From the NCBI GenBank assembly GCA_040005945.1, contig JBDTXY010000001.1, positions 1-41,593 on the forward strand: DNA of 41,593 nucleotides. Reading direction: 5' to 3'. Made by a program: the position numbers and the translations under genes. A model generated the notes under the pieces. That model worked only from the letters and a program-made list of their open reading frames with translations. It had not been told where the DNA came from and ran no database searches. Shown here piece after piece: positions 202 to 23,500 of this stretch. Within the stretch, counting starts at the first letter, position 1. Each line of letters begins with the position of its first letter. The DNA is from Acidobacteriota bacterium. GTDB lineage: Bacteria > Acidobacteriota > Thermoanaerobaculia > UBA5066 > Gp7-AA6.

Positions 202-263
202 CAGCTGGCGAAACGTGTCGACGAGCCATGAACGGACAAAGCACCAACCATCGTCGAGGAAAG

Positions 264-4910: not shown

Positions 4911-6661
4911 ATCGCAAGGCCGAGGCCTCCAATGTGCCGCGCACGTTCCGGCGCGAGTCGCGCTTGTTCCTGTGGATCGCCCTGCTACTGATCCTCTTCT
5001 TGAATTTCCTGACCCTCCTCTTCTTCCGCAGCGCGGTCGTCTGGGGAAATCTGGAAGCGGAGCGGCGCGTGGACGCCGTCCTGCGCCGCGCGGCGCTTTC
5101 CGGCACCCGATCCGACGGAGACGAGGCGATGGAGATCGGCACGCTGGAGCCCGACATCGTCTATCTGGCGATCTACAACGCGCGCGGGCAGAGGGTCCGG
5201 GCCCTGGGCCCCCGTGCCTCCGAGTCGCCGGCCGTGCTGAGCGGCCCGCGCCCCCCGGAAGGCCGCATCACGCACGGCTGGGGCGCCAACGGCGCGGCCG
5301 TCTCGACGCTGGCCGCCGATCAGCGCTTCTTCGTCATCGCCGTGGACCCTGGCGCGGGCGGGCCGCTGCGCGAATACGCGCGCAAGCTGTCCCTCTTCGT
5401 GCCCCTGGCTTCGGCGGCGCTGGTGGTGCTGGCCGCCTTCTATCTGCGCTCGCTGCTGGCCCCCTACGAGCGGCTTCTGGAAGCCGCCGGCGAAGCGCCC
5501 GAGAATTTTCGCGAGCATGGCGACGAGCGCGACTTCCTGATTACGCGCTTCGAAAGCACGATCGCGGCTCTGCACGAAAAGGAAGAGGAGCTGGAGCGGC
5601 TGGCGCGCAGCCAGAAGGAAAGGGCCGACGACCTCGAGACGGCGGCGCGCACGCTCTCCCGCAATCTGCCGACCGGGCTTTTGTCCGTGGATCCGCAGGG
5701 TCTCGTGGTCGAGCTGAACGAGGCGGGGCGCGAGATCCTGCGGCTGCCCCGGGAGGGGCGCGGCGAAGCGTTCACCGAGGTCCTCTCCGAAGCGCAGGAG
5801 TTTCGAGCGCTCGTGGGCGAAGTCCTGCAGAAGCGCGTGGTGGCCGGGCGGCAGGAAGTCCACTGGCGGCGCGAGACCGAACCCGAGCGCGTGCTGGGCG
5901 TGACCGCCACCCCCGCCGAAGGAGCCGACGGACGCTTCCTCGGGGCCGTGGTCCTGTTCTCGGATTTGACCGAGATCCGTCTGTTGGAGGGCCGGGTCGC
6001 GCTGGTCCGCCACCTCGCCGATCTGGGCCAGGTCTCGGCCGGAGCCGCCCACGAGTTTCGCAACGCCGCCGCCGCCATCGACGGCTTCGCGGATCTCGCG
6101 CTGCGCTCGCCGGACCCGGCGCGGGCGGCCGAATACGTGCGCGCGATCCGCCAGGAAGCGCAGGAGATGAGCCGCGTCACCAGCGACTTTCTGCTCTTCG
6201 CCAAGCCCGAGGGCTTCGTCCCGGACGCGATCGATCTGGCGGGAGTCGCGGATGCCGCCGTCGCCGAGACCGAACGCGCCTATCCGGGCGTGCGCGTGAT
6301 GCAGTCCGGCGATTTTGCCGAGGTCTCCGGCTCCGCGGTGCTGCTGCGTCGGGCGATCGCGAACCTGCTCCGCAACGCCGTCGAGGCCACGCCGGAGGCG
6401 CGCCGCTCCGCGGAGGACGCCGTCGCGCTGTGGGGCGCCGCGGGGGAGGGGGATGTCAAGATCTCCGTGGCCGATCGCGGGCCGGGAGTGCCCGCCGCGG
6501 AGAGAGAAAAAATCTTTCTCCCGTTTTTCTCGTCCAAGCCCGGGGGATCGGGGTTCGGCCTGGCGATCGTGGCCCGGATCGCGGAGCTCCACGGCGGCAC
6601 GGTGGAAGTGACGGACCGCGACGGGGGAGGAGCCGTCTTTACGCTGCGTCTGCCGGTGTAG
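4907..6661 (+). CDS. Sensor histidine kinase (two TM segments, PAS-like, HisKA, HATPase_c); PilS/NtrB-like
   Basis: ATG 4907 overlaps the upstream stop (ATGA). TM1 is LFLWIALLLILFLNFLTLLFF and TM2 is LSLFVPLASAALVVLAAFYL. PAS-like segment: LPTGLLSVDPQGLVVELNEAGREIL. H-box AAHEFRNAAAAIDGF, N-box LLRNAVEA, G-boxes DRGPGV and GSGFGLAIV. Confidence 0.9.
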   Translation: MNRKAEASNVPRTFRRESRLFLWIALLLILFLNFLTLLFFRSAVVWGNLEAERRVDAVLRRAALSGTRSDGDEAMEIGTLEPDIVYLAIYNARGQRVRALGPRASESPAVLSGPRPPEGRITHGWGANGAAVSTLAADQRFFVIAVDPGAGGPLREYARKLSLFVPLASAALVVLAAFYLRSLLAPYERLLEAAGEAPENFREHGDERDFLITRFESTIAALHEKEEELERLARSQKERADDLETAARTLSRNLPTGLLSVDPQGLVVELNEAGREILRLPREGRGEAFTEVLSEAQEFRALVGEVLQKRVVAGRQEVHWRRETEPERVLGVTATPAEGADGRFLGAVVLFSDLTEIRLLEGRVALVRHLADLGQVSAGAAHEFRNAAAAIDGFADLALRSPDPARAAEYVRAIRQEAQEMSRVTSDFLLFAKPEGFVPDAIDLAGVADAAVAETERAYPGVRVMQSGDFAEVSGSAVLLRRAIANLLRNAVEATPEARRSAEDAVALWGAAGEGDVKISVADRGPGVPAAEREKIFLPFFSSKPGGSGFGLAIVARIAELHGGTVEVTDRDGGGAVFTLRLPV

Positions 6662-6664
6662 GGG

Positions 6665-7795
6665 TCACGCGGGCTTCTTGAGCCCCGCGAGCAGCGTCTT
6701 GAACGATTCCTTGTCGATCGCGCGATCCAGCGCCTCGTTGGGCTCGACGACGTCCTGCTTGACCAACTCCGTCAGGGATTGATCCATCGAGATCATTCCC
6801 TTGGACTTGCCGGTCTGGATCTGATTGTTGATGCCCGCGGTCTTGCCCTCGCGGATCGCGTTGGAGAGCGCGGAAGAGCCCAGCAGGATCTCGTACGCCG
6901 GAACCCGTCCGCCATTCTTCTTGCGCAGCAGCTGCTGCGCGACGACGCCCCGCAGGACCTCCGCGAGGACGATGCGCACCTGTTCCTGCTCGGCGGCCGG
7001 GAACGCGTCGATGATCCGGTCCACGGCCTTGGCCGCGGAGTTGGTGTGGACGGTCGCGAAGACCAGCAGCCCGGTTTCCGCGGCCGTCAACGCCATGCGC
7101 ATCGTCTCCAAGTCGCGCATCTCGCCCACGAGCAGGCAATCCGGGTCCTCGCGAATGGCCGCTTTCACCCCGTCGGCGAAGCTGGGAACGTCCGGGCCGA
7201 TCTCGCGCTGCGTGAAGATGGATTTGTCGTTCTTGTGGATGAACTCGATGGGATCCTCGATCGTCACCACGTGGTGCGCCAGCCGTTTGTTCATCCGATC
7301 CAGAATCGCGGCCAGGGTCGTGGACTTGCCGCTTCCGGTCGGGCCCGTGATGAGGATCATGCCGCGCCGCACGGCGTAGAGCCCGGAGACGGCGGCGGGA
7401 AGGTTCAGGTCTTCGGCGGTGGGAACCTTGGACGGGATCAGACGGAAGACGGCGGCCGAGCCCCGCTCCTGTTGGAGGAGGTTGACCCGGAAGCGCGCCT
7501 GCTCGCCCATCTGGTAGGCGTAGTCCACGTCCCCGGAGTCCTGGAAGCTCTTCCAGGTCTTGGGCGGCGTGATCGGGCCCACCAGGTTGAAGAAGTCCCC
7601 CTCGGTCAAGACGCGATACCGCATCCGCTCGAGCTCGCCGTCGATGCGCACGATCGGAGGCGATCCCACCGAGAGGTGCAGATCGGAGCCCGATCGCTTG
7701 GGCAGGATCGCCAGGAATCGGTCGATCCGATTTCCGGCGGCCGTCACGTGGAGGTCGCCCTCCGCCGGAGGCCCCTTGGGCGCCGGCGCGCTCAC
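6665..7795 (-). CDS. pilT: Type IV pilus retraction ATPase PilT
   Basis: Motifs: SDLHLSVGSPPIVRIDGEL, Walker A GPTGSGKSTT, Asp box EDPIEF, Walker B CLLVGEMRD, His box LVFATVHT, PilT motif AIREGK. The GTG start at 7795 overlaps the upstream stop (GTGA). An alternative GTG lies at 7748. The ORF-track extension to 8719 is read-through of the upstream gene in another frame. Confidence 0.93.
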   Translation of the reverse strand: MSAPAPKGPPAEGDLHVTAAGNRIDRFLAILPKRSGSDLHLSVGSPPIVRIDGELERMRYRVLTEGDFFNLVGPITPPKTWKSFQDSGDVDYAYQMGEQARFRVNLLQQERGSAAVFRLIPSKVPTAEDLNLPAAVSGLYAVRRGMILITGPTGSGKSTTLAAILDRMNKRLAHHVVTIEDPIEFIHKNDKSIFTQREIGPDVPSFADGVKAAIREDPDCLLVGEMRDLETMRMALTAAETGLLVFATVHTNSAAKAVDRIIDAFPAAEQEQVRIVLAEVLRGVVAQQLLRKKNGGRVPAYEILLGSSALSNAIREGKTAGINNQIQTGKSKGMISMDQSLTELVKQDVVEPNEALDRAIDKESFKTLLAGLKKPA

Positions 7796-10269
7796 GCGGA
7801 CGCCCCCTCTTCGGCCTGCAGGAACGGCTCGAACGCTTCCTTCCGCTGCGCCCGGTCGTACGCGACACGCGGCTCGATCGAGCCGTCCTGAACGAGGTTG
7901 AGCAGCGCGCCGTCCATCAGGATCATCCCGGAGGAGGCCGCGGTTTGAATCGCGGTCGGGATCTGAAAGGTCTTGGAGTCCCGGATCAACCCGGCCACGT
8001 TGGGCGTATTGCGCAGGATCTCGTAGGCCGCGATCCGCCCCGCGCCGTCGCGCCGCGGCAGCAGCGACTGCGAGATCACCGCCTTGAGGGAGTCGGCCAC
8101 CATCATGCGGATCTGTCCCTGCTGGTCGGACGGGAACGCGTTGATGATGCGATCCACCGTCGAGGAGGCCGTGGTCGTGTGCAGAGTCGCCAGCACGAGG
8201 TGGCCCGTCTCGGAAGCCGTGATCGCCAGCGAGATCGTCTCCAGGTCGCGCATCTCGCCCACGAGGATGACGTCGGGATCCTCGCGCAGCGATTGCCGCA
8301 GCGCCTTGGCGAAGGATCGCGAGTGGGAGGGCACTTCCCGCTGGTTGACCAGGGATTCCTTGTTGGCGTGGACGTACTCGATCGGGTCTTCGACCGTCAG
8401 GATGTGGCCGCGCTCGGTCTCGTTGATGCGGTCCACCAGGGCCGCGAGCGTCGTCGTCTTGCCGCAGCCCGCGGGACCCGTCACCAGGATGAGCCCCTGC
8501 GAGTACGAGGTGATCTCCCAGAGGCTCTCGGGCAAACGGATGTCGGTCAAATTGGGGATCTCGTAGGGCACCAGCCGCATGACGGCTCCCGGCCCCTTGC
8601 GCTGGTAGAACAGGTTCGTGCGGAAGCGGCCCAGCTCCGAGTCCTTGTAACAGAAATCGAGCTGTCGCTTCTCCTCCAGCAGTTGCTTGTGCCCGTCGGT
8701 CAGCAGCGTGGACAGCCACCCATCCACCTGCTGGGTGGTGGACGGAGGCATCGGCAGCGGCCCCAGGCGGCCGTACACCCGCAACTGCGGCACCGTGCCC
8801 GCCGAGATGTGCACGTCGGAGGCCCCCACGGCGCGCGCGTGGCGCAGCAGGTCGTTCAACGTGGGCTTGGGAGTGGCAGTGAAGTCCAGCGGCGCGAACA
8901 CGCGCGCGCCGGGCGCCTGCCCCAGGAAGGTTCCGGTGCGTTGGGCGGCAATCTGGGCGGCCTTCTCCTTGACCAGGGGCTCCGAGTCGACCTGAACGAT
9001 GTTGGCCAGCAGGGCGGCGATCCGCGGATCCTCGATCTTTCCAAAGGCGTCCAGGATTTCCAGCCGGAGCTCCCGCTGGTTCTTGGCCGCCTTGTAGGCC
9101 TCCAGCAGGCCCGGAAGCGCCTTGGGCGTTCCCCAGATGCCGAGGGCAGCCGCGGCCGAGAGGCTGGATTCGGGGTTCTGAAGCATCTTGAGGAGGTGGG
9201 GCAGCGCTGATTCATCCCGAATCTCCGCCAGCGCCAGCGCGGCCCGATCGCGCAGCCACCAATCATCGTCCGAAAGAAACCGAATGCAGTGCGGGACCGC
9301 CTCCGCCGAACGGATGGTGACGGCGATGGACACGGCCAACGCCTTCTCGACCGGGTCCGCAGAGGAGCCGCGGTCCAGGAACGCGCGGATGAACTGCGGG
9401 CCCAGCTCGCGGAGCGCGTCCACCGCGAGGTCCTTGGCGGGGCCGTACGTCGTGCGGAAGGTGCGGAGGAACGCCTCGGCGATGTGGCCGGGGTCCTGAG
9501 TCGCGATGATGCGGGAGGCCAGCTGGCGCACCTTGGGGTTCGAATCGGAGAGCAGGGGCAGCAGCTCGTCGTTCCACTTCTGCGAGCGAGCCAGGAGCGG
9601 GGCCAGGGTGGCGATCGCGGCGTCCTGGACCCGGTGCGAATCGTTGCGGCAATGATTCAGCAGGGGCGCCAGCTGCGACTCGTCGGGATACTTGGAGAGG
9701 AGCTGAACGGCGCGGAATCGGATCTCTTCGTCCTCATCGTCCAGCGCCATCAGCGCCATCGGCCCGACCCGGGCGGAGCTCGTCGCCTCGATGATGCCGA
9801 AGGCCTTCTTGCGGACGGCCGGCGGATTCTCGGAAGTCAGTGCCTTGGCGATCCAGGACAGCGCGCGCTCGTTGGGATTGCGGCGGAGGTAGTCCAGCGC
9901 GGCGTGAACGACCACGGGATCCGGATTGCCCATGAACACCTGGATGCGGTCCAGGAAGTTTCCCCCCGCCAGCTGCTCCAGAGACTGCATGGTCTGGCGC
10001 CGCACCGCCTCGGTCTTGGAGGCCAGAAACGGGAACAAGGACGCCGCGGCCGCGTCGTAGGGAAACCGCTTGAGCATCGCCAGGCCTCCCTGGCGCAGCG
10101 CGACGTCGGTCTCCACACCCATCCAGGCGACGTCTCCGACCTCCAGGTCCGTCAGCGCGGCGACGGCGCGCACCAGCTCATCCCGCTCCACGTCCGTCTT
10201 CCACTTGCGGGCGTGGAGCTTGACGAGCAGCTCTTCGACGGCGGCCGATCTTCGCTTAACGGGCCACAT
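7792..10269 (-). CDS. HEAT-repeat domain fused to a PilT/PilU-family ATPase
   Basis: Residues 1-~467 contain HEAT/PBS-lyase-like repeats (NPDPVVVHAALDYLRR, DEDEEIRFRAVQLLSKY, DSNPKVRQLASRII, DDDWWLRDRAALALAEIRDESALPHLLKML). Residues ~468-825 form a complete PilT-type ATPase: ASDVHISAGTVPQLRVYGRL, Walker A GPAGCGKTT, EDPIEY, VILVGEMRD, HLVLATLHT. Confidence 0.9.
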   Translation of the reverse strand: MWPVKRRSAAVEELLVKLHARKWKTDVERDELVRAVAALTDLEVGDVAWMGVETDVALRQGGLAMLKRFPYDAAAASLFPFLASKTEAVRRQTMQSLEQLAGGNFLDRIQVFMGNPDPVVVHAALDYLRRNPNERALSWIAKALTSENPPAVRKKAFGIIEATSSARVGPMALMALDDEDEEIRFRAVQLLSKYPDESQLAPLLNHCRNDSHRVQDAAIATLAPLLARSQKWNDELLPLLSDSNPKVRQLASRIIATQDPGHIAEAFLRTFRTTYGPAKDLAVDALRELGPQFIRAFLDRGSSADPVEKALAVSIAVTIRSAEAVPHCIRFLSDDDWWLRDRAALALAEIRDESALPHLLKMLQNPESSLSAAAALGIWGTPKALPGLLEAYKAAKNQRELRLEILDAFGKIEDPRIAALLANIVQVDSEPLVKEKAAQIAAQRTGTFLGQAPGARVFAPLDFTATPKPTLNDLLRHARAVGASDVHISAGTVPQLRVYGRLGPLPMPPSTTQQVDGWLSTLLTDGHKQLLEEKRQLDFCYKDSELGRFRTNLFYQRKGPGAVMRLVPYEIPNLTDIRLPESLWEITSYSQGLILVTGPAGCGKTTTLAALVDRINETERGHILTVEDPIEYVHANKESLVNQREVPSHSRSFAKALRQSLREDPDVILVGEMRDLETISLAITASETGHLVLATLHTTTASSTVDRIINAFPSDQQGQIRMMVADSLKAVISQSLLPRRDGAGRIAAYEILRNTPNVAGLIRDSKTFQIPTAIQTAASSGMILMDGALLNLVQDGSIEPRVAYDRAQRKEAFEPFLQAEEGASA

Positions 10270-10441
10270 GTGCGATCAACTGAGATCAGTGTAGGGAGTC
10301 GAGCGTTCAGAGTCGAGTCGGGACTCCGGAGCCCGAGATCGCACCTCCGAGATCGTCGACATGGGACCGACAAGCCGCTACACTAGGGTCCATAAACCCG
10401 GCGAATTGGCCTCAGGGGCCGTCGAATTCGAAGATGAACGT

Positions 10442-10459
10442 CTGTTACCCGAAGTAACG
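10442..10459. promoter_or_regulatory. Palindrome CTGTTAC-CCGAA-GTAACG, candidate enhancer-binding-protein site (UAS)
   Basis: Inverted repeat TGTTAC/GTAAC separated by 5 nt, lying 97 nt upstream of the GG of the sigma-54-like element at 10547. An almost identical palindrome sits at the same distance from the second sigma-54-like element (20371-20389). Confidence 0.45.
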
Positions 10460-10546
10460 AAAGCTGGCTCATTTCTTCGAGACCCAAGGGGGCATGGAAT
10501 TGCTAAACGCCTGTGAAACAAGAGCCTTGCGACAAAGTGAGATACA

Positions 10547-10562
10547 CGGCACGGGAATCGCT
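10547..10562 (+). promoter_or_regulatory. Sigma-54 (-24/-12) promoter candidate for the minor-pilin operon
   Basis: CGGCACGGGAATCGCT fits the GG-N10-GC spacing of the TGGCACG-N4-TTGCW consensus. It differs at only one base from the element at 20473-20488. Caveat: the -12 GC is only 17 nt from ATG 10578, leaving almost no leader. Confidence 0.45.
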
Positions 10563-10577
10563 TTACGTCGCTACGTA

Positions 10578-11093
10578 ATGGTCCCAAATGCGTCGGTCGA
10601 TCGAAGCCATGGCTTCACGCTCGTGGAGATTCTGGTGGTAATGGCCATCTTCGCCGCCATGGCGCTGGTGGGCGTTCCGTACATGCTCAAGATCGCGCAG
10701 CGCAACGCGCTCAAGAGCGCCGCGCGGGAGATCTCCGTGACGCTGGCCGCGGCGCGAATGACGGCGGTCAAGCAAAACCAACCCGTGACCGTGGCCATCG
10801 GATCGGTCACTCCCCCCATCCAGTTCCTGACCATCCAGTCCGCGCCGCTGGCGGGGACGCCGACCCCGGTTCCGCAACTGCTGATTCTGCCCCGCAACGC
10901 GGCGCGGTTTCTGGCCACACCAGTCGGGGGCACCGTGATTTTCGGCGGAGACGGCCGGCTCAGCAATCCGCCGTTGACGCCGTCCGTGATCACGGTGGAG
11001 GGTCCCACGAACTCCATCCCCAGAAACTCGATCTCGATCAGCACCGCCGTCAACGGCCGAATCCAGGTGATCACACCGGTGGACTGGAAATGA
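10578..11093 (+). CDS. FimT/GspH-like minor pilin (prepilin-type N-terminus)
   Basis: MVPNASVDRSHG|FTLVEILVVMAIFAAMALVGVPYM, followed by a GspH-like RNALKSAAREISVTLAAARMTAVKQNQPVTV. The ORF-track start at 10494 would give an implausible 40-aa leader. Confidence 0.85.
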   Translation: MVPNASVDRSHGFTLVEILVVMAIFAAMALVGVPYMLKIAQRNALKSAAREISVTLAAARMTAVKQNQPVTVAIGSVTPPIQFLTIQSAPLAGTPTPVPQLLILPRNAARFLATPVGGTVIFGGDGRLSNPPLTPSVITVEGPTNSIPRNSISISTAVNGRIQVITPVDWK

Positions 11094-11695
11094 ACGCGAC
11101 CCGCCTTCGCCGCGAAGCCGGCGTCACCTTAGTCGAGCTGCTGATCGCGAGCGTGCTGCTCGCGTTGATCCTGTTGGCGATCGCGCCGCTCTTCATTGGC
11201 AGCGTCAGATCCAATTACGCGGCCAACGAATACACCAGCATCAACAACCTCGCGCGGGACCGGTTGGAACAGCTCATGAGCATCCCCATCCCCGAGCCGG
11301 ATCCGTTGGTATTTCCCGGCTACCAGCCGCAGCTCGACTTGAACGGGGGACCGGCTGCCGATGGGAACTATCCCAACGATCTTCCGACGCGACTGCCGGA
11401 CCCGTTGACGGAGGTCATCTCGGCCACGTCGGTCCGGAATCCGCTCGTGCGCACGTATACGGTGACGCACTGGACCTCCTCGGAGCCGGTTTGCCTCGCT
11501 CCCGGCTGCACGCCGAATCCCTGGATCCTTCAACAGGTCACTACCGTGGGCAACCCGTACGATTTCAAGAAGATCGACGTGACGGTCAGCTCCGTTAGGC
11601 CGGGAGGCACCGGATCGCTGCTGGGGATCGGCCAGAGGACCGCGCAGGTCTCGGGCTTCCTGCGCAACCCGGACCCCGCGGGGAACTTCCGATGA
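11090..11695 (+). CDS. pilV: PilV-like minor pilin
   Basis: The start overlaps the upstream stop (ATGA). N-terminus MNATRLRREAG|VTLVELLIASVLLALILLAIAPLF has the class III signal shape, with Val instead of Phe at +1 and Glu at +5. Its position is second in the canonical fimT/U-pilV-W-X-Y1 order. Confidence 0.7.
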   Translation: MNATRLRREAGVTLVELLIASVLLALILLAIAPLFIGSVRSNYAANEYTSINNLARDRLEQLMSIPIPEPDPLVFPGYQPQLDLNGGPAADGNYPNDLPTRLPDPLTEVISATSVRNPLVRTYTVTHWTSSEPVCLAPGCTPNPWILQQVTTVGNPYDFKKIDVTVSSVRPGGTGSLLGIGQRTAQVSGFLRNPDPAGNFR

Positions 11696-13161
11696 GCGCC
11701 TGCAGCACAGGGGCTCGCGCCCGGCGTCACCCGGCGGCCGGTTTCACGCTGATCGAGATGATCGTCGTGACGCTCCTTCTGATGATCGCGATGCTGGGCC
11801 TTCTGGCCGTTTTCGACGCGAGCTCGCGCATCAACAAGAGCGAGACCGACGTCGCCGACGCCCAGGGCAACGTCCGCTACGGCGTCTACCAGATGACCAA
11901 AGTCATCCGGATGGCGGGGGCCGGCGGCCTCTTCATCACCCAGGCCGTCATCAATGCCAATGCCAATCCCGCGTGGCCAGGGATCAACGTTTCGGGCTTC
12001 TACAACAACATCACCTCCGGCACCATCGATACGGCGGACGGCGGCGGTTCGACGGTCACCATCCGTCCCGGGACGGACATGATCGAGATCCGAGGCGTCA
12101 TCCTCTCGCCGCTGATCGGGTTCGATCAGTCGTCGGGCTGTGGCGGCGGGGGCTGCACCGGAACCGAGAACGTTCTGGTCAAGGAGATCGTCGGCGATCC
12201 GCTCATCGGTGAGCATCTCAACGACGACTCCACGTCGGGAAGCCCTCAGCGGCCCCAGTTCACGACGGTCGACACCTACACCGCCAGCGTCACCGGGACC
12301 AACAAGATGTACGTCGTGGTCGAGGACGGAAACTCCGACCTGCACACGGGCTGCTCTCCGCCGCCTCCCAGCCTGACGCAGCGATTCGCACAGCCGTTCT
12401 ACAACGTGGGCGCGATCTCGGTGCCGACGACCCTGAGATCTCCGGGTCTGACGTTTGGCCCCGTCGCGTTTGGCGACGCCACGGCCATGCGGTACAACCC
12501 CGAAATGCCTTCCGTCAAGAGCACGCAGCTGCCCGCGGCCATCGGGAAGGTGCGTCGGGCCGGAATCATGGACGACATCATCTTCTTCATCGGGATGCTC
12601 CCGACCTGCGGCGGCACGCCGGGGCCAGGCTGCGACCCGCTGGGCCAGCATCCGTATCTGGCTCAGGGCATCCGGCGCGGGAACCACTTCGAGGTCAGTC
12701 CGCTGGCCGACGACGTCGAGGACCTGCAGATCGCGTACGGGGTCGACACCAACGGAGACTTCGCGGTCACGCGCCTGGACGCAAAGCCGTATACCGATCC
12801 CTTCAACCAGGATCCGAATGTCTCGACGACCCTGGGCGGGGACGAGTGGCAGCCCAATGTTGCAGCCGAGCCGTTGTATGCCGACGTGGCCTTCCAGAGC
12901 CAGAACCCGTTTCCGGGCAGCAACGAACATCCCGGCATCCCCCCGGCCGCGCACTGTCCCCGTCTGCGGGGCGTGATGGTCTCACTTCTGGCCAAGGCGC
13001 ACGACCCGGACCCGAACTACCGCGGGCCGGGCGCCACCGGTTTTCGTCTGATGGACGTGCTCCCGGCCTCGGGCCCCCCGATCACGGCCGTTCCGGGTCG
13101 ATACCGCCGAAGAGTCCAAACGATCAAGATCAACCTTCGCAACTACGAGTTTCAGGGATGA
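11692..13161 (+). CDS. pilW: PilW-like minor pilin
   Basis: ATGA overlap with the upstream gene. ...HPAAG|FTLIEMIVVTLLLMIAMLGLLAVFDASSR. The large (489 aa) size and third position in the operon match PilW. Confidence 0.75.
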   Translation: MSACSTGARARRHPAAGFTLIEMIVVTLLLMIAMLGLLAVFDASSRINKSETDVADAQGNVRYGVYQMTKVIRMAGAGGLFITQAVINANANPAWPGINVSGFYNNITSGTIDTADGGGSTVTIRPGTDMIEIRGVILSPLIGFDQSSGCGGGGCTGTENVLVKEIVGDPLIGEHLNDDSTSGSPQRPQFTTVDTYTASVTGTNKMYVVVEDGNSDLHTGCSPPPPSLTQRFAQPFYNVGAISVPTTLRSPGLTFGPVAFGDATAMRYNPEMPSVKSTQLPAAIGKVRRAGIMDDIIFFIGMLPTCGGTPGPGCDPLGQHPYLAQGIRRGNHFEVSPLADDVEDLQIAYGVDTNGDFAVTRLDAKPYTDPFNQDPNVSTTLGGDEWQPNVAAEPLYADVAFQSQNPFPGSNEHPGIPPAAHCPRLRGVMVSLLAKAHDPDPNYRGPGATGFRLMDVLPASGPPITAVPGRYRRRVQTIKINLRNYEFQG

Positions 13162-13709
13162 CCATGCGCACACGACGCAGCGAACGAGGCGCCGCCCTGG
13201 TCGTCGCCATCCTGGTGTTGGCGATCCTGACCGTCATCGGCATCGCGCTGATGCTGATCACCTCCACGGAATCGCGGATCGCGGCCAATGAATGGTCGGT
13301 CAACCGCGGCTTCTACGCCGCCGACGCCGGGGTGCGCTGGTCTTCGGTCGAGATGAACAACACGCAATCCTTTCTGACGCGAAACGAGTTCAAGAAGGCC
13401 GACAGCACCAGCAATCCCTTCGGGTATGTCCTCTTCAACATGGAAGGACACCAGTTCCGCCAGGGCTCGCTGCTGCCCGGGAGCTTCCTGCAGAATCAAA
13501 ACGACATCGACGTGAAGGTGAGCACCCCCGGGCGCCTGGGACGGCGTCCCTACCGGGGAGGCATCATCAACGAGCAGGGGTCGCGCGCCCAATACCTTTA
13601 CGCTTTTGAGCTGCGCTCCCGAGGCGCAGACGACCGGTTCCTGAAGTATTCCAAGTCACTCGTAGCAGACGTGGAAGTCGGACCGCTCCCGGCCCGCCTC
13701 CCGTTCTGA
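13158..13709 (+). CDS. pilX: PilX-like minor pilin (PilX N-terminal domain)
   Basis: ATG 13158 overlaps the pilW stop (ATGA). [59 protein letters not shown] matches the PilX_N pattern (ERG-A-L..AL..L..L...G......E.R.A.N......A..AA.AG). The ORF-track extension to 12846 is read-through of pilW. Confidence 0.8.
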
Positions 13710-13720
13710 GGAGATTCCCG

Positions 13721-16700
13721 ATGAGACAGCGTCCGGTTACGACTTCAAGAGGCCTCGTAGGTTGGGCGGCGCGCCATCGTGCGGCGGCCACCTTCCTGCT
13801 GCTGTTCATGATGGCCTCACCCGCCACGCCGGATGATCGCCAGCTGCTCCAGGCCAATGCCGGAGCGTCGGCGGACGTTCTCCTGATCCTGGACTCCTCG
13901 AACTCCATGAACTTCGACTTCACCAATTTCTATCGATTGCCCGCGTACATGGACGATTTCGTCTACCCGGAAGGCACGACGGCGGGGGCCGAGGGGTCCA
14001 AGCTTGGCATCGCCAAGAGCGTGCTCCGCGAGGTCATCACGAAGACCACGGGCGTCAATTGGGCGTTCTCCTATTACCGCAATCCCAAACAGACCCTGGG
14101 CGCCGCCAACGCCGACACCGGTCTCCTGGATCCCTCGAAGCTGGGTGAGCCGATCGGGGGCGCCGTCAACAAGAACGACTACCTGGAGAATGGCGGGCTC
14201 GAGTGGTTCTACCTGGCCGAATGCATCGTCAGCTCGGCGGGCAGCAACGGAGGCTGTCTCGGGCTGCCGAGCGCGGTCTTCGACCCGGTGGAGTATCCCG
14301 ACGTGCAGGCCGGCCGGTTTCTGCAGCTCGGCCACAAGGTCATGCGCAACTACACACCCGACCCGCGGTATCCGTATCCCGGTGCGACCCCCGGCACCTG
14401 GCGCGGCTCCTTCGGGCCGCACTCTCAGAAACCCGGCTTCACCAAGAACAATCCCGAGGGACTGGTCGTCTACCGCAACCCGAACAAGCCGGGCTTCGAG
14501 CTCCGAATGACCGCCGTGAATCATCCGTACGGTGACCCGTTTATCTTCGTCAAGGTCGAAGAGTTCGCGGCGCCGGCCGTCCCCACGGTCACTCCGACGA
14601 CGACCCCGACGGTCACGGCGACGCCCACCTCGACCAGCACGCCGACGCTGACGAAGACCCCGAAGACCAAGACTCCGACGCCGACCCCTCCTCCGACCAA
14701 CACGCCGACGATCACTCTGACACCTTCCCTGACGCCGACGAAGACGCCGGTGACACCCACCCTGACGCCGTCGAAAACCTTCACGGCGACCAAGACCTTC
14801 ACGGCGACGCCGATCACCCCGACGAACACGCCGACGAAGACCCTGACGCCCACCAACACCTTCACGCCGACGAAGACCTTCACGGGCACGCCCATCACCC
14901 CGACGAACACGCCGACGAATACCCTGACGCCCACGCCCACCGTCCCGACGAACACGCCGACGAAGACCTTCACGGCGACGCCGATCACGCCGACGAAGAC
15001 GCCGTCGAACACCAAGACGCCGACACCGATCACCCCGACGGACACGCCGACGAAGACCTTTACGGCGACGCCGGTGACGCCCACGAGCACGAAGACCCCC
15101 GTGCCGACGAATACCCAGACGGCGACGCCCCTCCCGGCGACGAACACGCCGACCAAGACGCCGACGGTCGTGACGTCCACGCCGACGAAGACTCCGACGA
15201 TCTACATTCCGCCGACGACTGGTGGAGGCGCGATGCCCCCGCAAAGCCTGCTGCCGGTGATCGCAAACTGGCTTCCGCCGGCCGTTCGAGGTCTTCTGGC
15301 CATGGCTCCGCCGCCGCCGCCGATGCAGACGCCCGGCCCCTGCGCCGGCATCCTCATCACGCCGAAGGCCGACTGCGCGCCGTGTCCGTGGGAAGCTCTG
15401 GATTCGCCTCCGGGCACCAATCCCGGATATCCCCACTACCTCTGCGCGTACCAGGACGCCAACGGAGACAAGGCGATCAACCCGACCGAGAAGGCTCCTT
15501 CGAACCTCATTCCGCTGGACCCGAACCTGCGCGGATTCGACGATCCGCAGGCGGACCCCGATACGACGTTCGTCTCCACGAGCAAGATTGCGTTCATCAA
15601 GTATCGCCGGGGCGACCAGTTCAGCTTTCCGCCCAAGTACACGGCGGGCGACGACCTCACCGGCAATCCCCCGTGGGGATCGTGCATCGACGGCACCAAC
15701 AAGAAGGCCTGCCCGGTGTTTCCGGACTACGACGCGGACGGCAAGGCAGACACCCCGTGCGTTCCCGTCACCGCCTGCGATCGCCACAACCAGGGCATGT
15801 ACGCCGCCCTGTACGACGCCGGTTCCGCCCCGCCGACGACCGGCCCGTATCCTGGGGTGGGAGTGGCGGGGTTGAACTACTCGCGGCCGTATCAGCAGTA
15901 TCCGCTGGACGCTTTCGCGGCCAAGTCCTGCCCGCTGGATATCCCGAGCTGCGACCCGACGACGTGGGACTGCGGCGGCTTCGCGCACTTCAACGGGTTC
16001 ACGGCGAGAGACGGCACGCCCTATTCCGGCGTCGCGCCAGATGACTTGTCGGTGAACTCCCCCAACAACGGCGGCTCGCCCTACGCAACCGGCACCGAAC
16101 CTCCGGCTCCTGAGCGGTGGCCGGTCGTTCCGTTCAAGCGCGATTGGGATCCGTACAGGGCCACCGACTATCCGGCCGGAGGTCCTTCCGCCGACGAATC
16201 CATCAAGAAACTGCTGCGGTTCGTGTCGTCCATCGTGACCTACGATTCCGCCGCGCCGGACGTCACCACGGCCTACCGCCTCGCAGAGGACGCCAAGGAA
16301 GTCGTCGCGACAGCCTCGCAAACCCCCGTGGCTGGAGCGCTCGAGGACGCCTACAACTACTTCAAGGACAGCGTCTTCGCGCCGTCCACGGTCCCGGATC
16401 CGGCGGTGGACTGTCGAAACTTCATCATCGTCTACGTCACCGACGGCCTCGACGAATGCAACTCCAACCCGTGTACGGGAGGGCGGACCGGCCTCGGGGT
16501 CGCGGGCGACCTGAAAGACCTGCTGCTGCCCGAGAGCGCGCCGGGAGCTCGCGCGGCCGCCAACGCGGTCGACCCGACCATTCCCATCCGCGGAATTCCC
16601 GTCAACGTCGTGGCGATGGGAGACCCGACCGTCTTCACGAATCTGAGCTGCATCGCCGACAACAGCGGCGGTACCTTGTACGCCGCGACCGACCGCAGCA

Positions 16701-19393
16701 CGCTGGAATCGGCTCTCGAGTCCATCCTGGACTTCAAGCGGACGGCCACCTCTTTCGCGGCTCCCGCAGTGCCCGCCTTCTCGGGCGGCTTGAGCGACAC
16801 GGCGCTGATCGGCGCGGCCGTTCCGAGTCACTTGAACGTGGCGGATGGCTCGCTCTCCAAATGGTCGATCTGGAGCGGCTCGCTGAAGGCCCTGAAGCTC
16901 AATAACGGCGTCATCCCAGTCGTGACGGCGGCCTCGCCGACGGCGGCTCCCACCGTAACACCGGGCGGGCCGGTCCCGACGGTGACCCCCACGCCGGTGC
17001 CCGGCACCGGCAGCTATCCCGACGAGTCGGATCCCGACAATGGCACCGCCTCGGTGCGCAAGCCGGTTTGGAACGCAGGCCGGGTCCTGGGCTATACGAG
17101 CCCGTTAACCGATCTCGGAAACAACCTGGCTCCGCTCGATCCGCCGCCGCCCGGCAACGGCCCAATCCTGATCTGGCCCGGCCGCAAGATGATCTTTGCG
17201 AGCGGTTCGCTCGGCGGCAAGATCCCAATGGATCGGCAGGACTTGCTGCCCAATACCGGCACTTGCCAGAAGAGTGGAGGGACCGGCTGTTTCGACCTTC
17301 TGATGGGCTACATGGGATTGGACACCACGAAGACGATCGACACGACCCTGGCTGTCAACACCGTTCAATTCCTGCGGGGCGGCCGCACCAACTACGGGGT
17401 CCGAGACGAGATCCTCAACGACGTGAAACCCTCGACGATCGGGACGATCGGGCCCACGACCACCGAAAGAAAGTACTCCTATTACTATCAGGACGATCCA
17501 CCGATCCCCGGCAACCCGCCGCAGGATCCGACCGATTCGGCCAACACGCCTCCGGGGTATGCCCACAAGCTGGGCGACATTTTTCACTCCGAGGCGTTGG
17601 TCGTCGAGCCTCCGCGATATTTCCAATATCTTTCGTTGAATCTGGCGCCCAACGGCCCGGGCAGCGAGTATCTGAGCTTTGCGAACTTGCACGCTCAGCG
17701 CCGCAAGGTCGTTTACGTGGGATCCAATGACGGATTCCTCCACGCGTTCGACGCCGGCATGTTCAATCGCGACCCGGGCTTCGTTGGGATCCACGATCTG
17801 GGGACCGGGCGTGAAATCTTCGCGTATGCGCCGCGCGCCGTGAACGTCAAGTTCCCGGCCCTGCTCGATTTCACTCCGCTCCCGCAGTATTTCGTGGATG
17901 GATCCATGGCGGCGGCGGACGTGTTCGTCGATCCGGCCATCGCCGCCGCCGGCTCGCCGACCCCGGCGGATCGCGTATGGCGGACCGTGCTGGTCGGAGG
18001 CCTACGCCAGGGCGGTTCGAGATACTACGCTCTGGACGTCACGCAGCCCGACGAGATCGATCCGACGGGCGTCTTGCTGGACCCGAAGGACAATTCTCCC
18101 CACTGCTTGAACCTGACCGGCATCGGAACCAGTTGTAAAGCCGGAACGAGCGTCCCGCAGCGTCCGTATCCGTCGATTCTCTGGGAAATGGGCGACGTCG
18201 TCGATCCCGCGGCCGACCCCATCGTGGGAGCGCCCTGCTCCGACAGCTGTCAACTCTCTCCCCCTCCGGCCATGGGCGAAACCTGGTCGCGGCCGGTCGT
18301 CGGACGGATCCGGACCTTCACGGGACAGAACCCCGGACCGACATTCGAAGACCACTACGTCGCGATCTTTGGCGGAGGCTTCGACGCGAACTTTAACCCC
18401 GGCGACAACGTCGCCGCCCTGGTCGGCGCGGGCACGGCGGTCAACGGGCGAGCCTTCTACATTGTGGACGTGGAGACCGGCAAGATCCTCTTCAAGACCA
18501 CTGAGGGAATCGAAGGCGACGGGGTCACGATGACCAACTTCGCTCCCATGCCCGCACACCCCGCGGTGGCCGATTACGACGATGACGGCTACCTCGACGT
18601 GGCCTACATCGGCGACATGAACGGAAATATGTACCGCATCGATCTGACGCCGAATCCGGATCCGGCGGTGCTCCGCGGACAGATGGGCTCCGGCGAGGCC
18701 CACGGGTACGTTCCGTTCCACCTGTTCGACACCTGCAAGACCGTCACGATCGTCCCTTGCGATCAGCCGATCTTCTTCGAGCCCGGCATCGTCTTCCTGG
18801 GAGGCACGCTCAGTCCCCCGGCGCTGGGCATCTCGTTTGGCACTGGCAACCGCGCGGAGCTCGCGGCCCCCAACCCGGTGGGAGAGCCCAACGCCTTCTA
18901 CTACGTGACCGATACGGGGCAGGTCGATTTCACGTTCGACCGCAGCTCCTTGCGCGACATCACGCCCGTGACCGGAGTCGGGCCCTGTCCCATTCCCTAC
19001 GATCCGCTCACGTGTGGAGCGGGGAACACGGGCTTCGTGCTGGATTTCGCGTCGGGCAACGAGAAAGCCACGTCCACCCCGTTCTCGACCCAGGGTTACC
19101 TTTCGATCATCACGTTCACGCCGGATTCGGTCAGCCCCTGCGCCACGGAGGGCAACTCGTATCGCTACCGTTTCTTCTTCCTGACGGGGCAACCCGGGTA
19201 TACGACCGATCCCAGCGCCATCTATAACGGCTACGCGCAGACTCTGGGAGAGGGAATGGCCAGCGCGTCCCAATCCGTGGCCCCGGACGGAGATATAATC
19301 GACACGCTGCTGTTCTCGGAGGGTAATGTCCGTCAGGACATCACGCCGGGAGCCGTCAGGACGATCGAGCAAAACTGGAAGGAACAGCAATGA
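13721..19393 (+). CDS. pilY1: Giant PilY1-like pilus tip adhesin (vWA motifs, Thr/Pro linker, Cys-rich insert, C-terminal PilY1 propeller)
   Basis: GAGGAG lies 7 nt upstream of the ATG. N-terminal signal-like segment [15 protein letters not shown]. vWA MIDAS DSSNS (13892-13906) with the later vWA strand [12 protein letters not shown] (~16433). C-terminal third carries PilY1 hallmarks: [67 protein letters not shown], and a Ca-binding-type loop [25 protein letters not shown]. Confidence 0.9.
14573..15220 (+). repeat. Thr/Pro-rich low-complexity linker encoded by degenerate tandem DNA repeats (inside pilY1-like gene 1)
   Basis: About 215 residues are almost entirely T, P, K, N, F, e.g. [48 protein letters not shown]... 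The DNA unit GACGAAGACCTTCACGG(C/G)(G/C)ACGCC(G/C)ATCAC(C/G)CCGACGAA recurs at roughly 90-bp intervals (near 14867, 14958, 15048). Confidence 0.85.
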
Positions 19394-20283
19394 AATCACT
19401 CCGACAGGGCCTCGCCGCCGCGTTTCTCACCGGAACGACGGCGTTGGCCCTGGCCGGAGATGTCGTGGTCCTCAAGGGCGGAGCAGTCATCGAGCTCAAG
19501 CAGCCTTGGGTCCGCCGCGGCAACACCGCCTACCTGACTCGCGCCGACGGGACTCTGCTCTCCGTCCCCGTGGGAGAGATTGACCGGGACGCTACCGCCG
19601 CCGCGGCGGTCAAGCCGGCGTCGCAGCCTGCGCCGGCCGAGCCGTCCCAGCCCTCGACTCCGGCCGAGGCCGTTCGCACGGTTCGCGAAGGGCCCAAGGC
19701 GCGCGTCAAGATCACCGACGCAGACGTGTCCCATCCGTTGGATCTGTCGGAAACGCTCCCGCAGGGAAAGAAAGAGCAGCCCGGGGGACCCGCACGCGTG
19801 GAGATCGCGCAATATACGCAAGACCTTCAAGGCCAGACCCTCTACGTCAAGGGCCAGCTCCGCAATCCCACGCAGTACCTGGCCGACGATGTCAAGATGA
19901 CCGTTACCGCGATCGACGAGAAGGGCCAGGCGATCACCGCGGAGCCCGCTTCGCTGTCCAATGGCCAGCTGGAGAGCGCGGCAACGGTGGAATTCTCCGT
20001 ACCCCTCGCGGTGGGCGACCGCACCGTGGCTTCTCTGCGTTTCGCTCCCACCTGGAAAGGACCGCGCCCAACACCTGCCCCCACGCCAAGAGCGAACGCC
20101 GCCGCCGCTGCAAGGGCAGCAGCGGCCGCCGAGGCTCCCCAGGTCCGGCCGACTCCATACGGTCGAGGCAACATTTACCCGGCTCCCGTGGCCAATGCTC
20201 CGATGTCGCCGCAGGCGGACGGGTCCGGCTACATCCCTGGCGCGGCCAGTACCGAGAACCAGCCTAAGCCCCCCCAGCACTAG
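19390..20283 (+). CDS. Secreted protein of unknown function, translationally coupled to pilY1-like gene 1
   Basis: ATGA overlap at 19390-19393. Signal peptide [23 protein letters not shown]. Small N-terminal domain, a Pro/Ala-rich linker ([24 protein letters not shown]), a beta-rich C-terminal domain ([33 protein letters not shown]...) and a Pro/Ala tail. No family recognised with confidence. Confidence 0.7.
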
Positions 20284-20370
20284 GCCCCCCCGCGGAAATC
20301 CCGCGCCTCCGCAATCTCGAATACCTGCCCGTTTTGTCAGGTCTGTGTACTGGCACGCAGGCCAGTTTCA

Positions 20371-20389
20371 CTGTTACTGGAAGTAACAG
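20371..20389. promoter_or_regulatory. Palindrome CTGTTAC-TGGAA-GTAACAG, candidate enhancer-binding-protein site (UAS)
   Basis: Perfect 7-bp inverted repeat with a 5-nt spacer, 94 nt upstream of the GG of the sigma-54-like element at 20473. It has the same half-sites as 10442-10459. Confidence 0.5.
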
Positions 20390-20472
20390 GATGGCAAGTC
20401 GACAGGTTCGGTCCTCGAGGTTGTATTGATGCAACTGATTCATTTCCAGCTATTTGAAGCGATCTTCGGTGG

Positions 20473-20488
20473 CGGCACGGAAATCGCT
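20473..20488 (+). promoter_or_regulatory. Sigma-54 (-24/-12) promoter candidate for pilY1-like gene 2
   Basis: CGGCACGGAAATCGCT has correct GG-N10-GC spacing. It is followed ~20 nt later by GGAGG and ATG 20518, and matches 10547-10562 at 15 of 16 positions. Confidence 0.6.
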
Positions 20489-20517
20489 CCTTCCGGACTA
20501 GAAACCCGGAGGCCAAG

Positions 20518-23500
20518 ATGCGGATTCAACCCAGCGTTCGCGGAGTCAAACACGGATCGCGATTTCGGGGAGCCGTCTCCTCGCTCTTGCTCCTGCTCAC
20601 GGCCGTGCCCGGACGTCCCGACGACCGGCAGCTCCTTCAGGCGAATCAGGGCGCCAACACCAACGTCCTCCTGATCCTGGACTCCTCGCATTCGATGAAC
20701 GACGAGTTCGCGGCCAAGTACCGGTTGCCGGCGTACATGGACGACTTCCTGTATCCGCAGGGAACCTCCGAAGGGACCAGCGGCTCCAAGCTGGGGGTGG
20801 CCAAGAGCGTGCTTCGCCAGACCCTGTCGATCACGAGCGGCGTCAACTGGGCGTTCGCCTACTACCGGAATCCGAACCAGACCTTCGGCGCGGCGGACAC
20901 GTTCGTCGGGACGCCTCCCGACTACGTCGACCAGGGCCTCGCGATCGGCGGCGCCAAGGTCGCGGGCGACTACCTGGAAAACGGTGGGCTCGAGTGGATG
21001 TATTTCGCGGACTCGCTGCTCGACGGCTCGCCGGTCAGCTCCGCGTTTGCGTCCAACGACTATCCCGACATCCAGAGCGGCCGCTTCCTGCAAATGGGCC
21101 ACAAGGTCATGCGCAACTACGGAAGCGAGCAGCCCGTCCTCGAGATCGCCGACGTGCGTCCGCCGTACTCGGCTCCCACGGGCCCGCCGTCGGGGGAACC
21201 GACTCCGGGAACCTGGAGGGGCGCCTTCGGACCGCACGGGGAGGGGCAGGTCATCTATCGGAGCCCGTCCAAGCCGGGCTCCGAGCTGCGGATCAAGGTC
21301 TCTTCGGGCAAGTATTCCGACGCCTCCCTCATCCTGGATGTCGAGGAGTGGGCGCCGCCTCCGCCAACCTTCACTCCCAACAAGACGAAGTCGCCCACGC
21401 AGACCATCACCCCTGGCGGCCCGCCGCCGCCTACCGCCACCAAGAAACCGACGAAGACCGCCACTCCCATTCCTCCGACGCCGACACCCACGCCCAAGGG
21501 TTCCGAAGGCCAGTTGCCCGTCGGAAGCCGGCTGCCGGTGATCGCCTCGTGGATGGCGCCGGCGGTGCGCGGGATGTTGGCCATGGTTCCCCCGCCTCCC
21601 CAGCCGGCGCCGCCGTGTCCCGGCATCCCGGCAGGCTATCCGCCGCCGCAGTGCGCGCCTTGTCCGTACGACCTCGCCGGACGTTCCTGCTCCGTCGTCG
21701 ATGCCAACGCAAACGGCGCCATCGATCCGGGAGAGTTCGCTCCGGCAAACTTCATCCCCCTGCCCTCCGCGATGCGGGGATTCGACGACCCGCAGGCCGA
21801 TCCGACCCAGAAGGGGCAATACCTGCGGACGGTCTCGATCAAGTACACGCGCGGGGACCTCTACAACCTGCCCCCACAGTACCTCCCCGACGACCTGAAG
21901 AACGGAAACCCGCCCTGGGGCTCGCGGGCGGGAGACGGAGACGCCGACGGAAAAACCGACGGGTTGGCGGACCGCCACAACCAGGGGATGTTCGCGGCCA
22001 TCTACGACAAGGATCGCTCCCGCGGCGAGCAGCAGTATCCCAGCGACGCGTTCGCCGAGCCGTCCTGCCCTCTGAACGATTACTTCGCCGGCACGCAATG
22101 CGACGTGTACGTGAAGGACTGCGGCGGACTGGCTCGATACCTCTCCGCAAGACCGTGCGATCCGGCCAATCCCGAGGTCTCGTGCGCGGGCGGCGGATAC
22201 AACGCGTACCCGGACGCCCTCACGAAGCCTCCGTCCTCGGACGACTGGGTGGTGGTTCCCTTCAAGCGCGACTACATCGCGACGGACACCGACAACGCTC
22301 CGGTCATCAAGAGACTCTTGCGCTTCGCCTCTTCCATCGTGTCCTACGACTCAGCCGCGCCGACGGCCAATGCCTACCAGCTCAAGGAGGACGCGAAAAA
22401 CGTGGTCGTGACCGCTCCGGGAACGCCCATCGGGGGCGCGCTGCACGACGCCTACAACTACTTCGTGAAGAGCGTTTTCCCGGGCGACGTGGTTCGGGAC
22501 GACAAGGTCGACTGCCGCAAATACATCGTCGTGTTCTTGACGGACGGGCTGGATGAGTGCGGCTCGCAGGATCTCCTGTGCTCGGGCGGTCCGACGGGAG
22601 GCGGTCCCGGGGGTGATCTGGGTGAGGTGCTGCTGCCCGAGAGCGTGCCGGGTGCGCGCGCGGCCGCCCACGCGATCGATCCGATGGTGCCCCTCAAAGG
22701 AATCCCGGTCTACATGATCGGATTGGGCACGGACCTGGATCTGGACAGCTTTCAGTGCATCGCCGACAAGAGCGGGGGAAAGGTCCTGGGCGCCACCAGC
22801 GGCGATGAGCTGCGGGCGGATCTGGCCAGCATCTTGAACTTCCAGCGCGGCGCCAACGTGTTCGCGTCACCGAGTCTGCCGGCCTTCTCCTCGGCGCAGG
22901 GCAACGACTCGGCGCAGATCGGCGCGGTCATCCCCAGTCATCAAAATCTCGACGGGTCCCTCTCGAGCTGGTCGGTCTGGAACGGATCCCTGAAGAGCTA
23001 CAAACTGGATCCCCAGGGATTGATCCCGGTCGTCACCGCGGCTCCCGCGACGCCCACCCCCACGCCCACGGGCGTCGTTCCCACGGCCACTCCGGGGGTG
23101 CCGACACCCACGCCGACTCCGATTCCGGGCACGACCAGCTATCCCAACGAGACCCTTCCGGATGGGCCCGTCGCCGTGCAACGAATGCCCGTCTGGAACG
23201 CGGCGCGGCTCCTGGGGTACACGGACCCGTCGACCAATCTCGACGGCGGGAAAGCGCCCAGCGGCGCCACACCGGCGGCCAAGAACGTCTGGCCCGGCCG
23301 CAAGATGGTGTTCGCGCGGGCCGCGGCGGGGGTGCCCCTCCTGCGCGCCGATTTCATGCCGGATACCCCGGGCGTCTGCGACGGCGCCTGCTTCAACGAC
23401 CTGATGACCGACATGGGCCTGACGCCGGGCAATCCGGACGACACGACGCTGGCCATTCGCACGGTGCAGTTTCTGCGCGGCGGAACCAAGGCCGGCGGCA

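Follow-up and report, generated by a model that had tools for sequence, protein, structure and literature searches.

The 41,593-nucleotide stretch analysed here, the first part of contig JBDTXY010000001.1 from an Acidobacteriota bacterium and hereafter called the window, carries within a type IVa pilus locus a gene for an unusual pilus ATPase, HEAT-PilT, in which a solenoid of HEAT repeats precedes a complete PilT module. Directly downstream lies a gene for a shorter PilT-family protein, hereafter the partner. HEAT-PilT is a genuine HEAT-solenoid::PilT ATPase, the HEAT part is under purifying selection, and the tight coupling between the two genes is conserved far beyond the window genome. With moderate confidence, we propose that HEAT-PilT and its partner are an ancient pair of ATPases, coupled in translation, that work as an accessory retraction unit and bring their own scaffold arm. 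That estimate takes in everything stated, the putative pairing and the role in pili included; we are close to certain of what the data show, namely the architecture, the completeness of the motifs, the conservation, the synteny, the co-phylogeny and the motif differences. The physical pairing of the two proteins, their part in retraction and what the arm binds we infer.

Architecture of HEAT-PilT

The gene and its parts are laid out as follows.

7792..10269, minus strand: HEAT-pilT gene, 825 codons plus a TGA stop, with no internal stop in frame
8938..10245, minus strand: HEAT-repeat alpha-solenoid, residues ~9-444 (~27 helices, ~13 repeats; Pfam and AlphaFold2)
8860..8937, minus strand: interdomain linker, residues ~445-470, without secondary structure (predicted local distance difference test, pLDDT, 53-58)
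7795..8859, minus strand: PilT ATPase module, residues 471-825 (N-domain 471-567, ATPase core ~590-825)
8452..8478, minus strand: Walker A GPAGCGKTT, residues 598-606 (motif table)
8176..8211, minus strand: His box ETGHLVLATLHT, residues 687-698, with both histidines present in the window lineage

An earlier note, made from the letters and open reading frames, had described this product as an 825-residue PilT-type ATPase with an N-terminal HEAT domain, and the open frame, Pfam, NCBIfam and all of the ATPase boxes bear that description out. The domain search that it suggested returned Pfam HEAT_2 in four stretches (E 1e-34; 119 bits against a cut-off of 27.7), HEAT (E 2e-14; 52.7 bits against 23.5), a borderline HEAT_PBS match and, at residues 582-739, T2SSE (E 1e-44). 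The N-terminal region is accordingly a repeat domain, as had been claimed: a tandem helix-turn-helix alpha-solenoid scoring above the Pfam gathering threshold. An AlphaFold2 model computed from 33 homologues places an unbroken run of ~27 helices at residues 9-444 (pLDDT ~88), followed by the linker and the N- and C-domains of PilT. Profile scores and predicted fold together identify the HEAT domain as a genuine solenoid of repeats. Foldseek searches with the model placed PilT structures on top; for the arm, they returned only generic designed alphaRep proteins and no specific HEAT relative, and the arm's matches in a sequence search of the PDB were likewise alphaRep designs.

The C-terminal part belongs, by score and motifs, to the PilT/PilU family. 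NCBIfam TIGR01420 (pilT_fam) matches residues 471-810 with 424.7 bits against a cut-off of 319.1, and the motif set of the family (Walker A, Asp box, Walker B, His box with two histidines, arginine fingers) is complete. Walker A carries Cys in the usual place of Ser, a trait common in the HEAT clade described below, and G598, G603 and K604 are invariant in a diverse alignment of 23 sequences. The Asp box reads VEDPIEY, Walker B is of the atypical type with a catalytic Glu (DVILVGEMRD), and R548, R550 and R565 supply the arginine fingers. Near the C terminus, the AIRNLIRE motif is replaced by PNVAGLIRD. Nor does the protein have the layout of a canonical PilT, a single module of ~345-380 residues encoded with pilB and pilC, as it is 825 residues long.

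The nearest solved structure is Pseudomonas aeruginosa PilT (3jvu), which matches residues 472-813 with 320 bits; the PilU structure 9n32 reaches 248 bits. A PilU identity, considered for both HEAT-PilT and the partner, is unsupported by such PDB scores. HEAT-PilT has no long C-terminal tail and its sequence lies nearer to PilT than to PilU structures; the tree described below was built with no PilU reference.

The coupled partner

Immediately downstream on the same strand, the following features were identified.

6665..7795, minus strand: partner pilT, 376 residues if read from the GTG at 7795 (a second possible GTG start follows 16 codons downstream)
7792..7795, minus strand: GTGA, in which the TGA stop of HEAT-pilT overlaps the GTG start of the partner, as read in the sequence
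7043..7078, minus strand: partner His box ETGLLVFATVHT, with Leu243 at the position of the first histidine (H222 of P. aeruginosa)

The stop/start overlap, which the earlier note had read as a sign of co-expression, is present as described and is preceded, a few bases 5', by a purine-rich GAGGGGG. The note's view of the downstream gene as a canonical pilT held in part. The product is of the PilT family (429.6 bits to TIGR01420; 42% identity to the ATPase part of HEAT-PilT) and its gene is coupled to HEAT-pilT. It departs from the PilT/PilU motif set in one item, the Leu that replaces the first histidine of the His box, and reads SALSNAIRE where canonical proteins have AIRNLIRE. Together with its placement in a clade of partners (Shimodaira-Hasegawa-like approximate likelihood ratio test, SH-aLRT, 99), these changes rule out a canonical pilT. 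The genome holds at least five PilT-family genes, of which the best-scoring (480 bits) is located on another contig, C5, between pilB (646 bits to TIGR02538, on a truncated frame) and pilC, and has both AIRNLIRE and an intact His box (GHL..TLHT). Judged by score, motifs and gene order, this pilB-pilT-pilC gene is the canonical housekeeping PilT of the genome.

Conservation and selection

A search of 5.8 billion proteins recovered more than 120 clusters of full-length homologues, 820-830 residues long and 63-82% identical to HEAT-PilT; several derive from contigs of 1-4 Mb, and the named sources are Thermoanaerobaculia. An exhaustive search of representatives at 50% identity added dozens more full-length relatives (30-52% identity, 810-940 residues), which align from the very N terminus and have in common an L.RL...W...ER..L helix and a DWWxRxxAxExLGR repeat. 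The most conserved block of the arm comprises its C-terminal repeats around DDDWWLRDRAALALAEI (residues 334-350), where W338 and L347 are invariant in the 23-sequence alignment.

In a codon comparison with four relatives, the ratio of nonsynonymous to synonymous substitution (dN/dS) came to 0.17-0.41 in the arm, 0.16-0.23 in the ATPase and 0.33-0.78 in the linker; with dS near 1, these are rough values. Because the arm lies at 0.17-0.41, the HEAT part is under purifying selection. The linker is the least conserved part and is in frame in all four relatives. That an error of sequencing or assembly fused two separate genes around position 8860, a danger raised by the earlier note, is vanishingly improbable: the uninterrupted frame of 820-830 residues recurs in the >120 independent clusters from many assemblies, full-length HEAT-PilT is found in 21 + 39 reference genomes (see below), the codon alignment keeps the linker open throughout, and nothing was found in favour of an artefact.

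Searches with a profile of the HEAT domain by itself returned fusions almost exclusively, alongside a few HEAT-only gene calls. Four such calls (P0321, P0322, P0323 and P0340; 560-650 residues), which are 72-75% identical to the window arm and have no recorded T2SSE match, are probably truncated or frameshifted copies and not free-standing arms.

Distribution and synteny of the pair

A HEAT-only profile was screened against 401 evenly drawn Acidobacteriota genomes, giving a bimodal score distribution: 21 genomes have a full-length match (372-526 bits, frames of 823-947 residues), and the rest show generic HEAT proteins at or below 126 bits. The carriers comprise 15 of the 39 genomes in the window's class and six elsewhere in the phylum. 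Full-length matches also occur in 39 of 301 genomes of a second phylum, that of a metagenome-assembled genome (MAG) listed by NCBI as 'Deltaproteobacteria bacterium'. Members of the clusters are named as Thermoanaerobaculia, Acidobacteriota, Myxococcota/Myxococcales and Archangium, and these source names point to Myxococcota as the second carrier phylum. A second tier of the Acidobacteriota screen consists of frames of ~740-800 residues that match HEAT-profile positions ~130-420 at 100-126 bits (e.g., G023:C28, G070:C28, G083:C50 and G040:C104); this family is present in many Acidobacteriota and is probably unrelated to the arm of HEAT-PilT.

A HEAT-PilT module was defined by a full-length match to the HEAT profile, a frame of ~820-950 residues and a partner-clade PilT immediately downstream. 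The window shows all three, with 509 bits to the profile, a partner overlapping by 4 nt and both proteins in their respective clades. Among the 20 other Acidobacteriota carriers, 19 have a short PilT directly downstream on the same strand; at the remaining locus, L035, a weak partial match (35% identity) is located ~2.1 kb off. Two distant loci obtained by exact protein look-up, one from the 'Deltaproteobacteria bacterium' MAG and one from a MAG named only 'bacterium' (a locus identical to that of genome G084), keep the pair as well. The 4-nt stop/start overlap recurs in ~13 of 23 distinct loci, with a gap of 0-47 nt in eight more, so that an overlap or short gap characterizes nearly all of them.

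The gene order of the window is kept in relatives at 56-73% HEAT identity. On the side of pilD and the kinase gene (see below), the order is the same in six relatives (L008, L009, L021, L025, L027 and L032), and at three more distant loci (L026, L030 and L034) the module stands beside the kinase, in two of them with pilD too. The pair also persists with no pilus genes nearby (L010 and L012). HEAT-pilT and the partner are tightly coupled, and it is the pair, not the pilus neighbourhood, that is the conserved unit.

Phylogeny and the His-box pattern

A quick maximum-likelihood tree was built from 52 PilT modules, covering all paralogues of seven genomes, extra members of the module and two PDB references. 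The HEAT-fused ATPases (14 rows) form one clade (SH-aLRT 92, rising to 97 when two paralogues without fusion, both from one genome, are included). The 13 partner rows make up the separate clade noted above. Both group with P. aeruginosa PilT (98), whereas the PilTs of pilB-pilT-pilC loci group with Aquifex PilT. The branching order matches between the HEAT-ATPase and partner clades, as co-inheritance since a single duplication predicts.

Every canonical PilT in the motif table has AIRNLIRE and GHL...TLHT. In all 13 sampled partners, the first His-box histidine is replaced by L, M, T or I. The HEAT clade always retains this residue and carries Asn at the second histidine (the H229 equivalent) in six of 14 members. 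In P. aeruginosa PilT, the H222A substitution makes pili retract threefold more slowly than in the wild type (10.1101/2020.02.12.946426). H229 is the histidine that coordinates the gamma-phosphate, and H229A has been found to abolish twitching (10.1101/672212) or to leave partial function (PMC12607626). By analogy only with these mutants, the partner could be a permanently slowed ATPase and HEAT-PilT the fully equipped one in the window lineage.

Further arrangements of PilT modules came to light in these searches. Protein P0123/P0317, from a Candidatus Eremiobacterota MAG, consists of TPR repeats, an acidic stretch and two PilT modules in a single chain; the tree groups the first of these modules with the HEAT clade and sets the second, which also lacks the first histidine, beside the partner clade. 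Single-chain proteins of ~725-1410 residues with two complete ATPase modules (P0126-P0128, P0137, P0141, P0125 and P0123/P0317) form a wider set, some with DUF4388 or TPR N termini and most with a more divergent N-terminal module. P0248 carries a WD40 propeller of the seven-blade type N-terminal to PilT, and P0197 (Archangium sp., 1336 residues) has MshEN and HEAT in this position. One Acidobacteriota genome holds two unfused tandem PilT pairs (G084:C27:7289-9383 and G084:C189:1146-3221), whose upstream members are sister to the HEAT clade and of which one downstream member has Gln at the first His-box histidine; these pairs could represent a pre-fusion or arm-loss state of the module.

A proposed two-ATPase retraction unit and its alternatives

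According to the reading that we favour, HEAT-pilT and the partner would have arisen by tandem duplication of a PilT gene and been inherited together since, with both proteins translated from one message, often across overlapping stop and start codons. In the window lineage, the module lies within a type IVa pilus locus, between pilA-pilD-kinase and the minor-pilin/pilY1 operon. The two proteins may form one accessory retraction unit, either as stacked hexamers, as in PilT-PilU, or as a mixed ring, in which HEAT-PilT would be the catalytically complete subunit in the window lineage and the partner the naturally slowed one. In a published model of PilC-PilT-PilU, PilT docks on PilC and PilU stacks on PilT through its C terminus (10.1101/2025.10.30.685630; PMC13584747). 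Applied to HEAT-PilT, such a geometry would have six HEAT arms emerging from the N-terminal side of the ring and pointing into the cytoplasm, away from the membrane. The PilC-facing side would then remain free, an arrangement that would suit a scaffold role in which the arms dock or gate the partner ring, a regulator or a polar landmark. The pilus link itself draws support from the embedding of the module in a pilus locus in the window, its family and its order.

Only tentatively would we go further, to an obligate heteromeric motor: a double ring or a mixed 3+3 ring in which the catalytic cycle is divided between the two subunits and the arms, six or three in number, clamp the second ring or tether the motor to a regulator. 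Each lineage would, on this doubtful extension, weaken a different His-box histidine in a different subunit.

It is distinctly unlikely, in our judgement, that the two proteins are instead independent motors, adjacent merely through tandem duplication, with HEAT-PilT a homohexamer whose arm is autoinhibitory or serves targeting and has nothing to do with the partner. The genomes here hold 5-12 PilT paralogues, several in tandem without fusion; the adjacent MXAN_6705/6706 of Myxococcus xanthus give partial, separable phenotypes (PMC13584747); and AlphaFold2 yields no confident interdomain arrangement. Mere leftovers of duplication, however, usually diverge or vanish, whereas adjacency is kept here in 19 of 20 genomes across divergence down to 25-30% HEAT identity. 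The conserved start/stop overlap, the mirrored tree topologies, the clade-wide loss of a catalytic-motif histidine in the partner and the one single-chain fusion of both ATPase types likewise speak against independence. Unlikely, too, is that the module is no type IVa retraction device and works on another filament, in DNA uptake or in a non-pilus task, its position in a pilus locus being secondary. Such a role would fit the many loci with no pilus gene near (L010, L012, L020, L022-L024, L028-L029, L031 and others), the degenerate AIRNLIRE of both proteins and the His-box changes, which suggest weak ATPases. Yet the scores of both proteins clearly exceed the PilT/PilU cut-off, and the tree puts the two with P. 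aeruginosa PilT. Throughout the window's family and order, moreover, the module keeps its place between pilD-kinase and the minor pilins, and even L026, L030 and L034 retain the kinase, two of them with pilD.

Several observations weigh against the retraction unit that we propose. Contact between HEAT-PilT and the partner, and an action of either on pili, are putative. Outside the window's family and order, the module lies mostly away from pilus genes, albeit with the pair retained, and one sampled carrier (L035; G083:C9:33500-45600) has no adjacent partner. The AIRNLIRE motif, which PilT of P. aeruginosa reportedly needs in order to function, is degenerate in HEAT-PilT and partner alike. What H222A does in that species may not hold for a divergent paralogue with Leu at this site. 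With a predicted template modelling score of 0.43, the AlphaFold2 model does not predict how arm and ATPase are placed with respect to each other. Finally, branch support in the tree is SH-aLRT from a quick search, and the placement of the two halves of P0317 depends on long branches; because of the latter, we weight this single-chain fusion lightly as support of the Rosetta-stone type for a physical association.

Genomic surroundings

Listed below are the features around the module in the window, which is a type IVa pilus locus.

228-746, plus strand: pilin gene
836-3034, plus strand: YfhO-like polytopic membrane protein, 732 residues, between the pilin gene and pilD
3031-3822, plus strand: prepilin peptidase gene pilD
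4472-6661, plus strand: open reading frame of a PAS histidine kinase, whose translation probably begins near 4877
10270..10574: intergenic region from which HEAT-pilT and the minor-pilin operon diverge; fimT is likely to start at ATG 10575
10494..25461, plus strand: minor-pilin operon to the second pilY1-like gene (Pfam N_methyl, GspH, PilW, PilX_N and T4P_PilY1)

The operon reads, on the plus strand, fimT/gspH-like, pilV-like, pilW, pilX, pilY1 (13721-19393), a 297-residue open reading frame and a second pilY1-like gene (20518-25461). The two PilY1-like proteins are 1890 and 1647 residues long, the first with a Thr/Pro-rich region of ~250 residues built from TPTxTxT repeats.

The intergenic region contains one sigma-70-like site, on the plus strand at 10356-10384, as well as a sigma-54-like site, CGGCACGGGAATCGC, at 10547-10561 (+) that faces the minor-pilin operon, not HEAT-pilT. 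A near-identical sigma-54-like site occurs at 20473-20487 (+), the two following CGGCACGG[G/A]AATCGC with GG-N10-GC spacing. One stands just 5' of fimT ATG 10575 and the other 5' of the second pilY1-like gene (20518), and each pilY1-like gene appears to have its own sigma-54-like promoter. A sigma-54 promoter was also looked for in front of HEAT-pilT; none was found there, the two good sites facing other genes. The window contains a PAS kinase gene, and relative L008 has a sigma-54 activator beside its locus.

The position of the YfhO-like gene is conserved in L008, L021, L027 and L032, and in L009 it is fused to pilD (a 1001-residue call); its product could be a pilin-modifying enzyme. Further along, at 30542-33135 on the minus strand, lies a pair of TldD/PmbA-type metallopeptidase genes (C-terminal domain E 1e-29 to 1e-31) in a stretch of 71-75% G+C.

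Significance and comparison with known systems

The earlier note did not recognise the architecture as a characterised one, and full-text literature searches agree: no paper on a HEAT-PilT fusion was found, and 'PilT' combined with 'HEAT repeat' gave irrelevant matches only. The databases name the protein only as 'PilT/PilU family type 4a pilus ATPase' or 'twitching motility protein PilT'. HEAT-pilT is a real and conserved pilus-motor gene that has apparently gone unstudied.

Cooperation between paired retraction ATPases is under active study in pilus research, and the PilT-PilU stacking model dates only from 2025-26. The module would present a second, independent and apparently older solution, in which one motor bears a large protein-binding arm and its tightly coupled companion is permanently altered at a residue whose point mutation slows the P. 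aeruginosa motor. It is common in two large, mostly uncultured phyla of soil and sediment whose surface behaviour is poorly known. Should the pair be one machine, nature would have supplied a system in which to examine the sharing of work between ring ATPases, the tuning of retraction speed or force, and the means by which a motor is recruited to its platform or kept away from it; should it have no pilus role, it would be a PilT ring put to other use. Were the heteromeric motor real, the retraction machines of type IV pili would gain a new class, one that occurs widely among Acidobacteriota and Myxococcota.

The closest likeness is to PilT itself (P. aeruginosa 3jvu/3jvv; Geobacter PilT4 6ojx/5zfq; Aquifex 2ewv), of which HEAT-PilT contains the full module at residues 471-825. 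Unlike PilT, it adds a 470-residue HEAT solenoid plus linker in front, has PNVAGLIRD for AIRNLIRE and Cys for Ser in Walker A, and is encoded outside a pilB-pilT-pilC locus. The tandems of PilT and PilU (Vibrio, Pseudomonas and Acinetobacter; PilU of M. xanthus) resemble the module as adjacent, co-transcribed paralogues that plausibly form one machine; in them, hexamers are stacked and one motor depends on the other (PMC6762196; 10.1101/2025.10.30.685630; PMC13584747). However, neither HEAT-PilT nor the partner is nearer to PilU than to PilT. The extension of HEAT-PilT is large and N-terminal, whereas PilU has a short C-terminal tail; the extended gene comes first here; and the clade-wide His-box change sits in the partner, not in the extended protein.

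N-terminal additions for regulation or docking are also known from PilB and MshE, with the cyclic di-GMP-binding MshEN domain, and from Thermus PilF (GSPII). These are extension ATPases with known ligand-binding domains, whereas HEAT-PilT is of the retraction type and carries a generic protein-binding solenoid; P0197 unites MshEN, HEAT and PilT in one protein. Lastly, MXAN_6705 and MXAN_6706 of M. xanthus are likewise adjacent PilT paralogues, the first with a longer N terminus. This pair is conserved across Myxococcales, and deletion of MXAN_6706 causes a partial defect in S-motility (PMC13584747). The likeness is drawn from the published description, in which the extension of MXAN_6705 is intrinsically disordered and a HEAT domain is not mentioned (PMC13584747); in HEAT-PilT, by contrast, the N-terminal extension is a HEAT solenoid.

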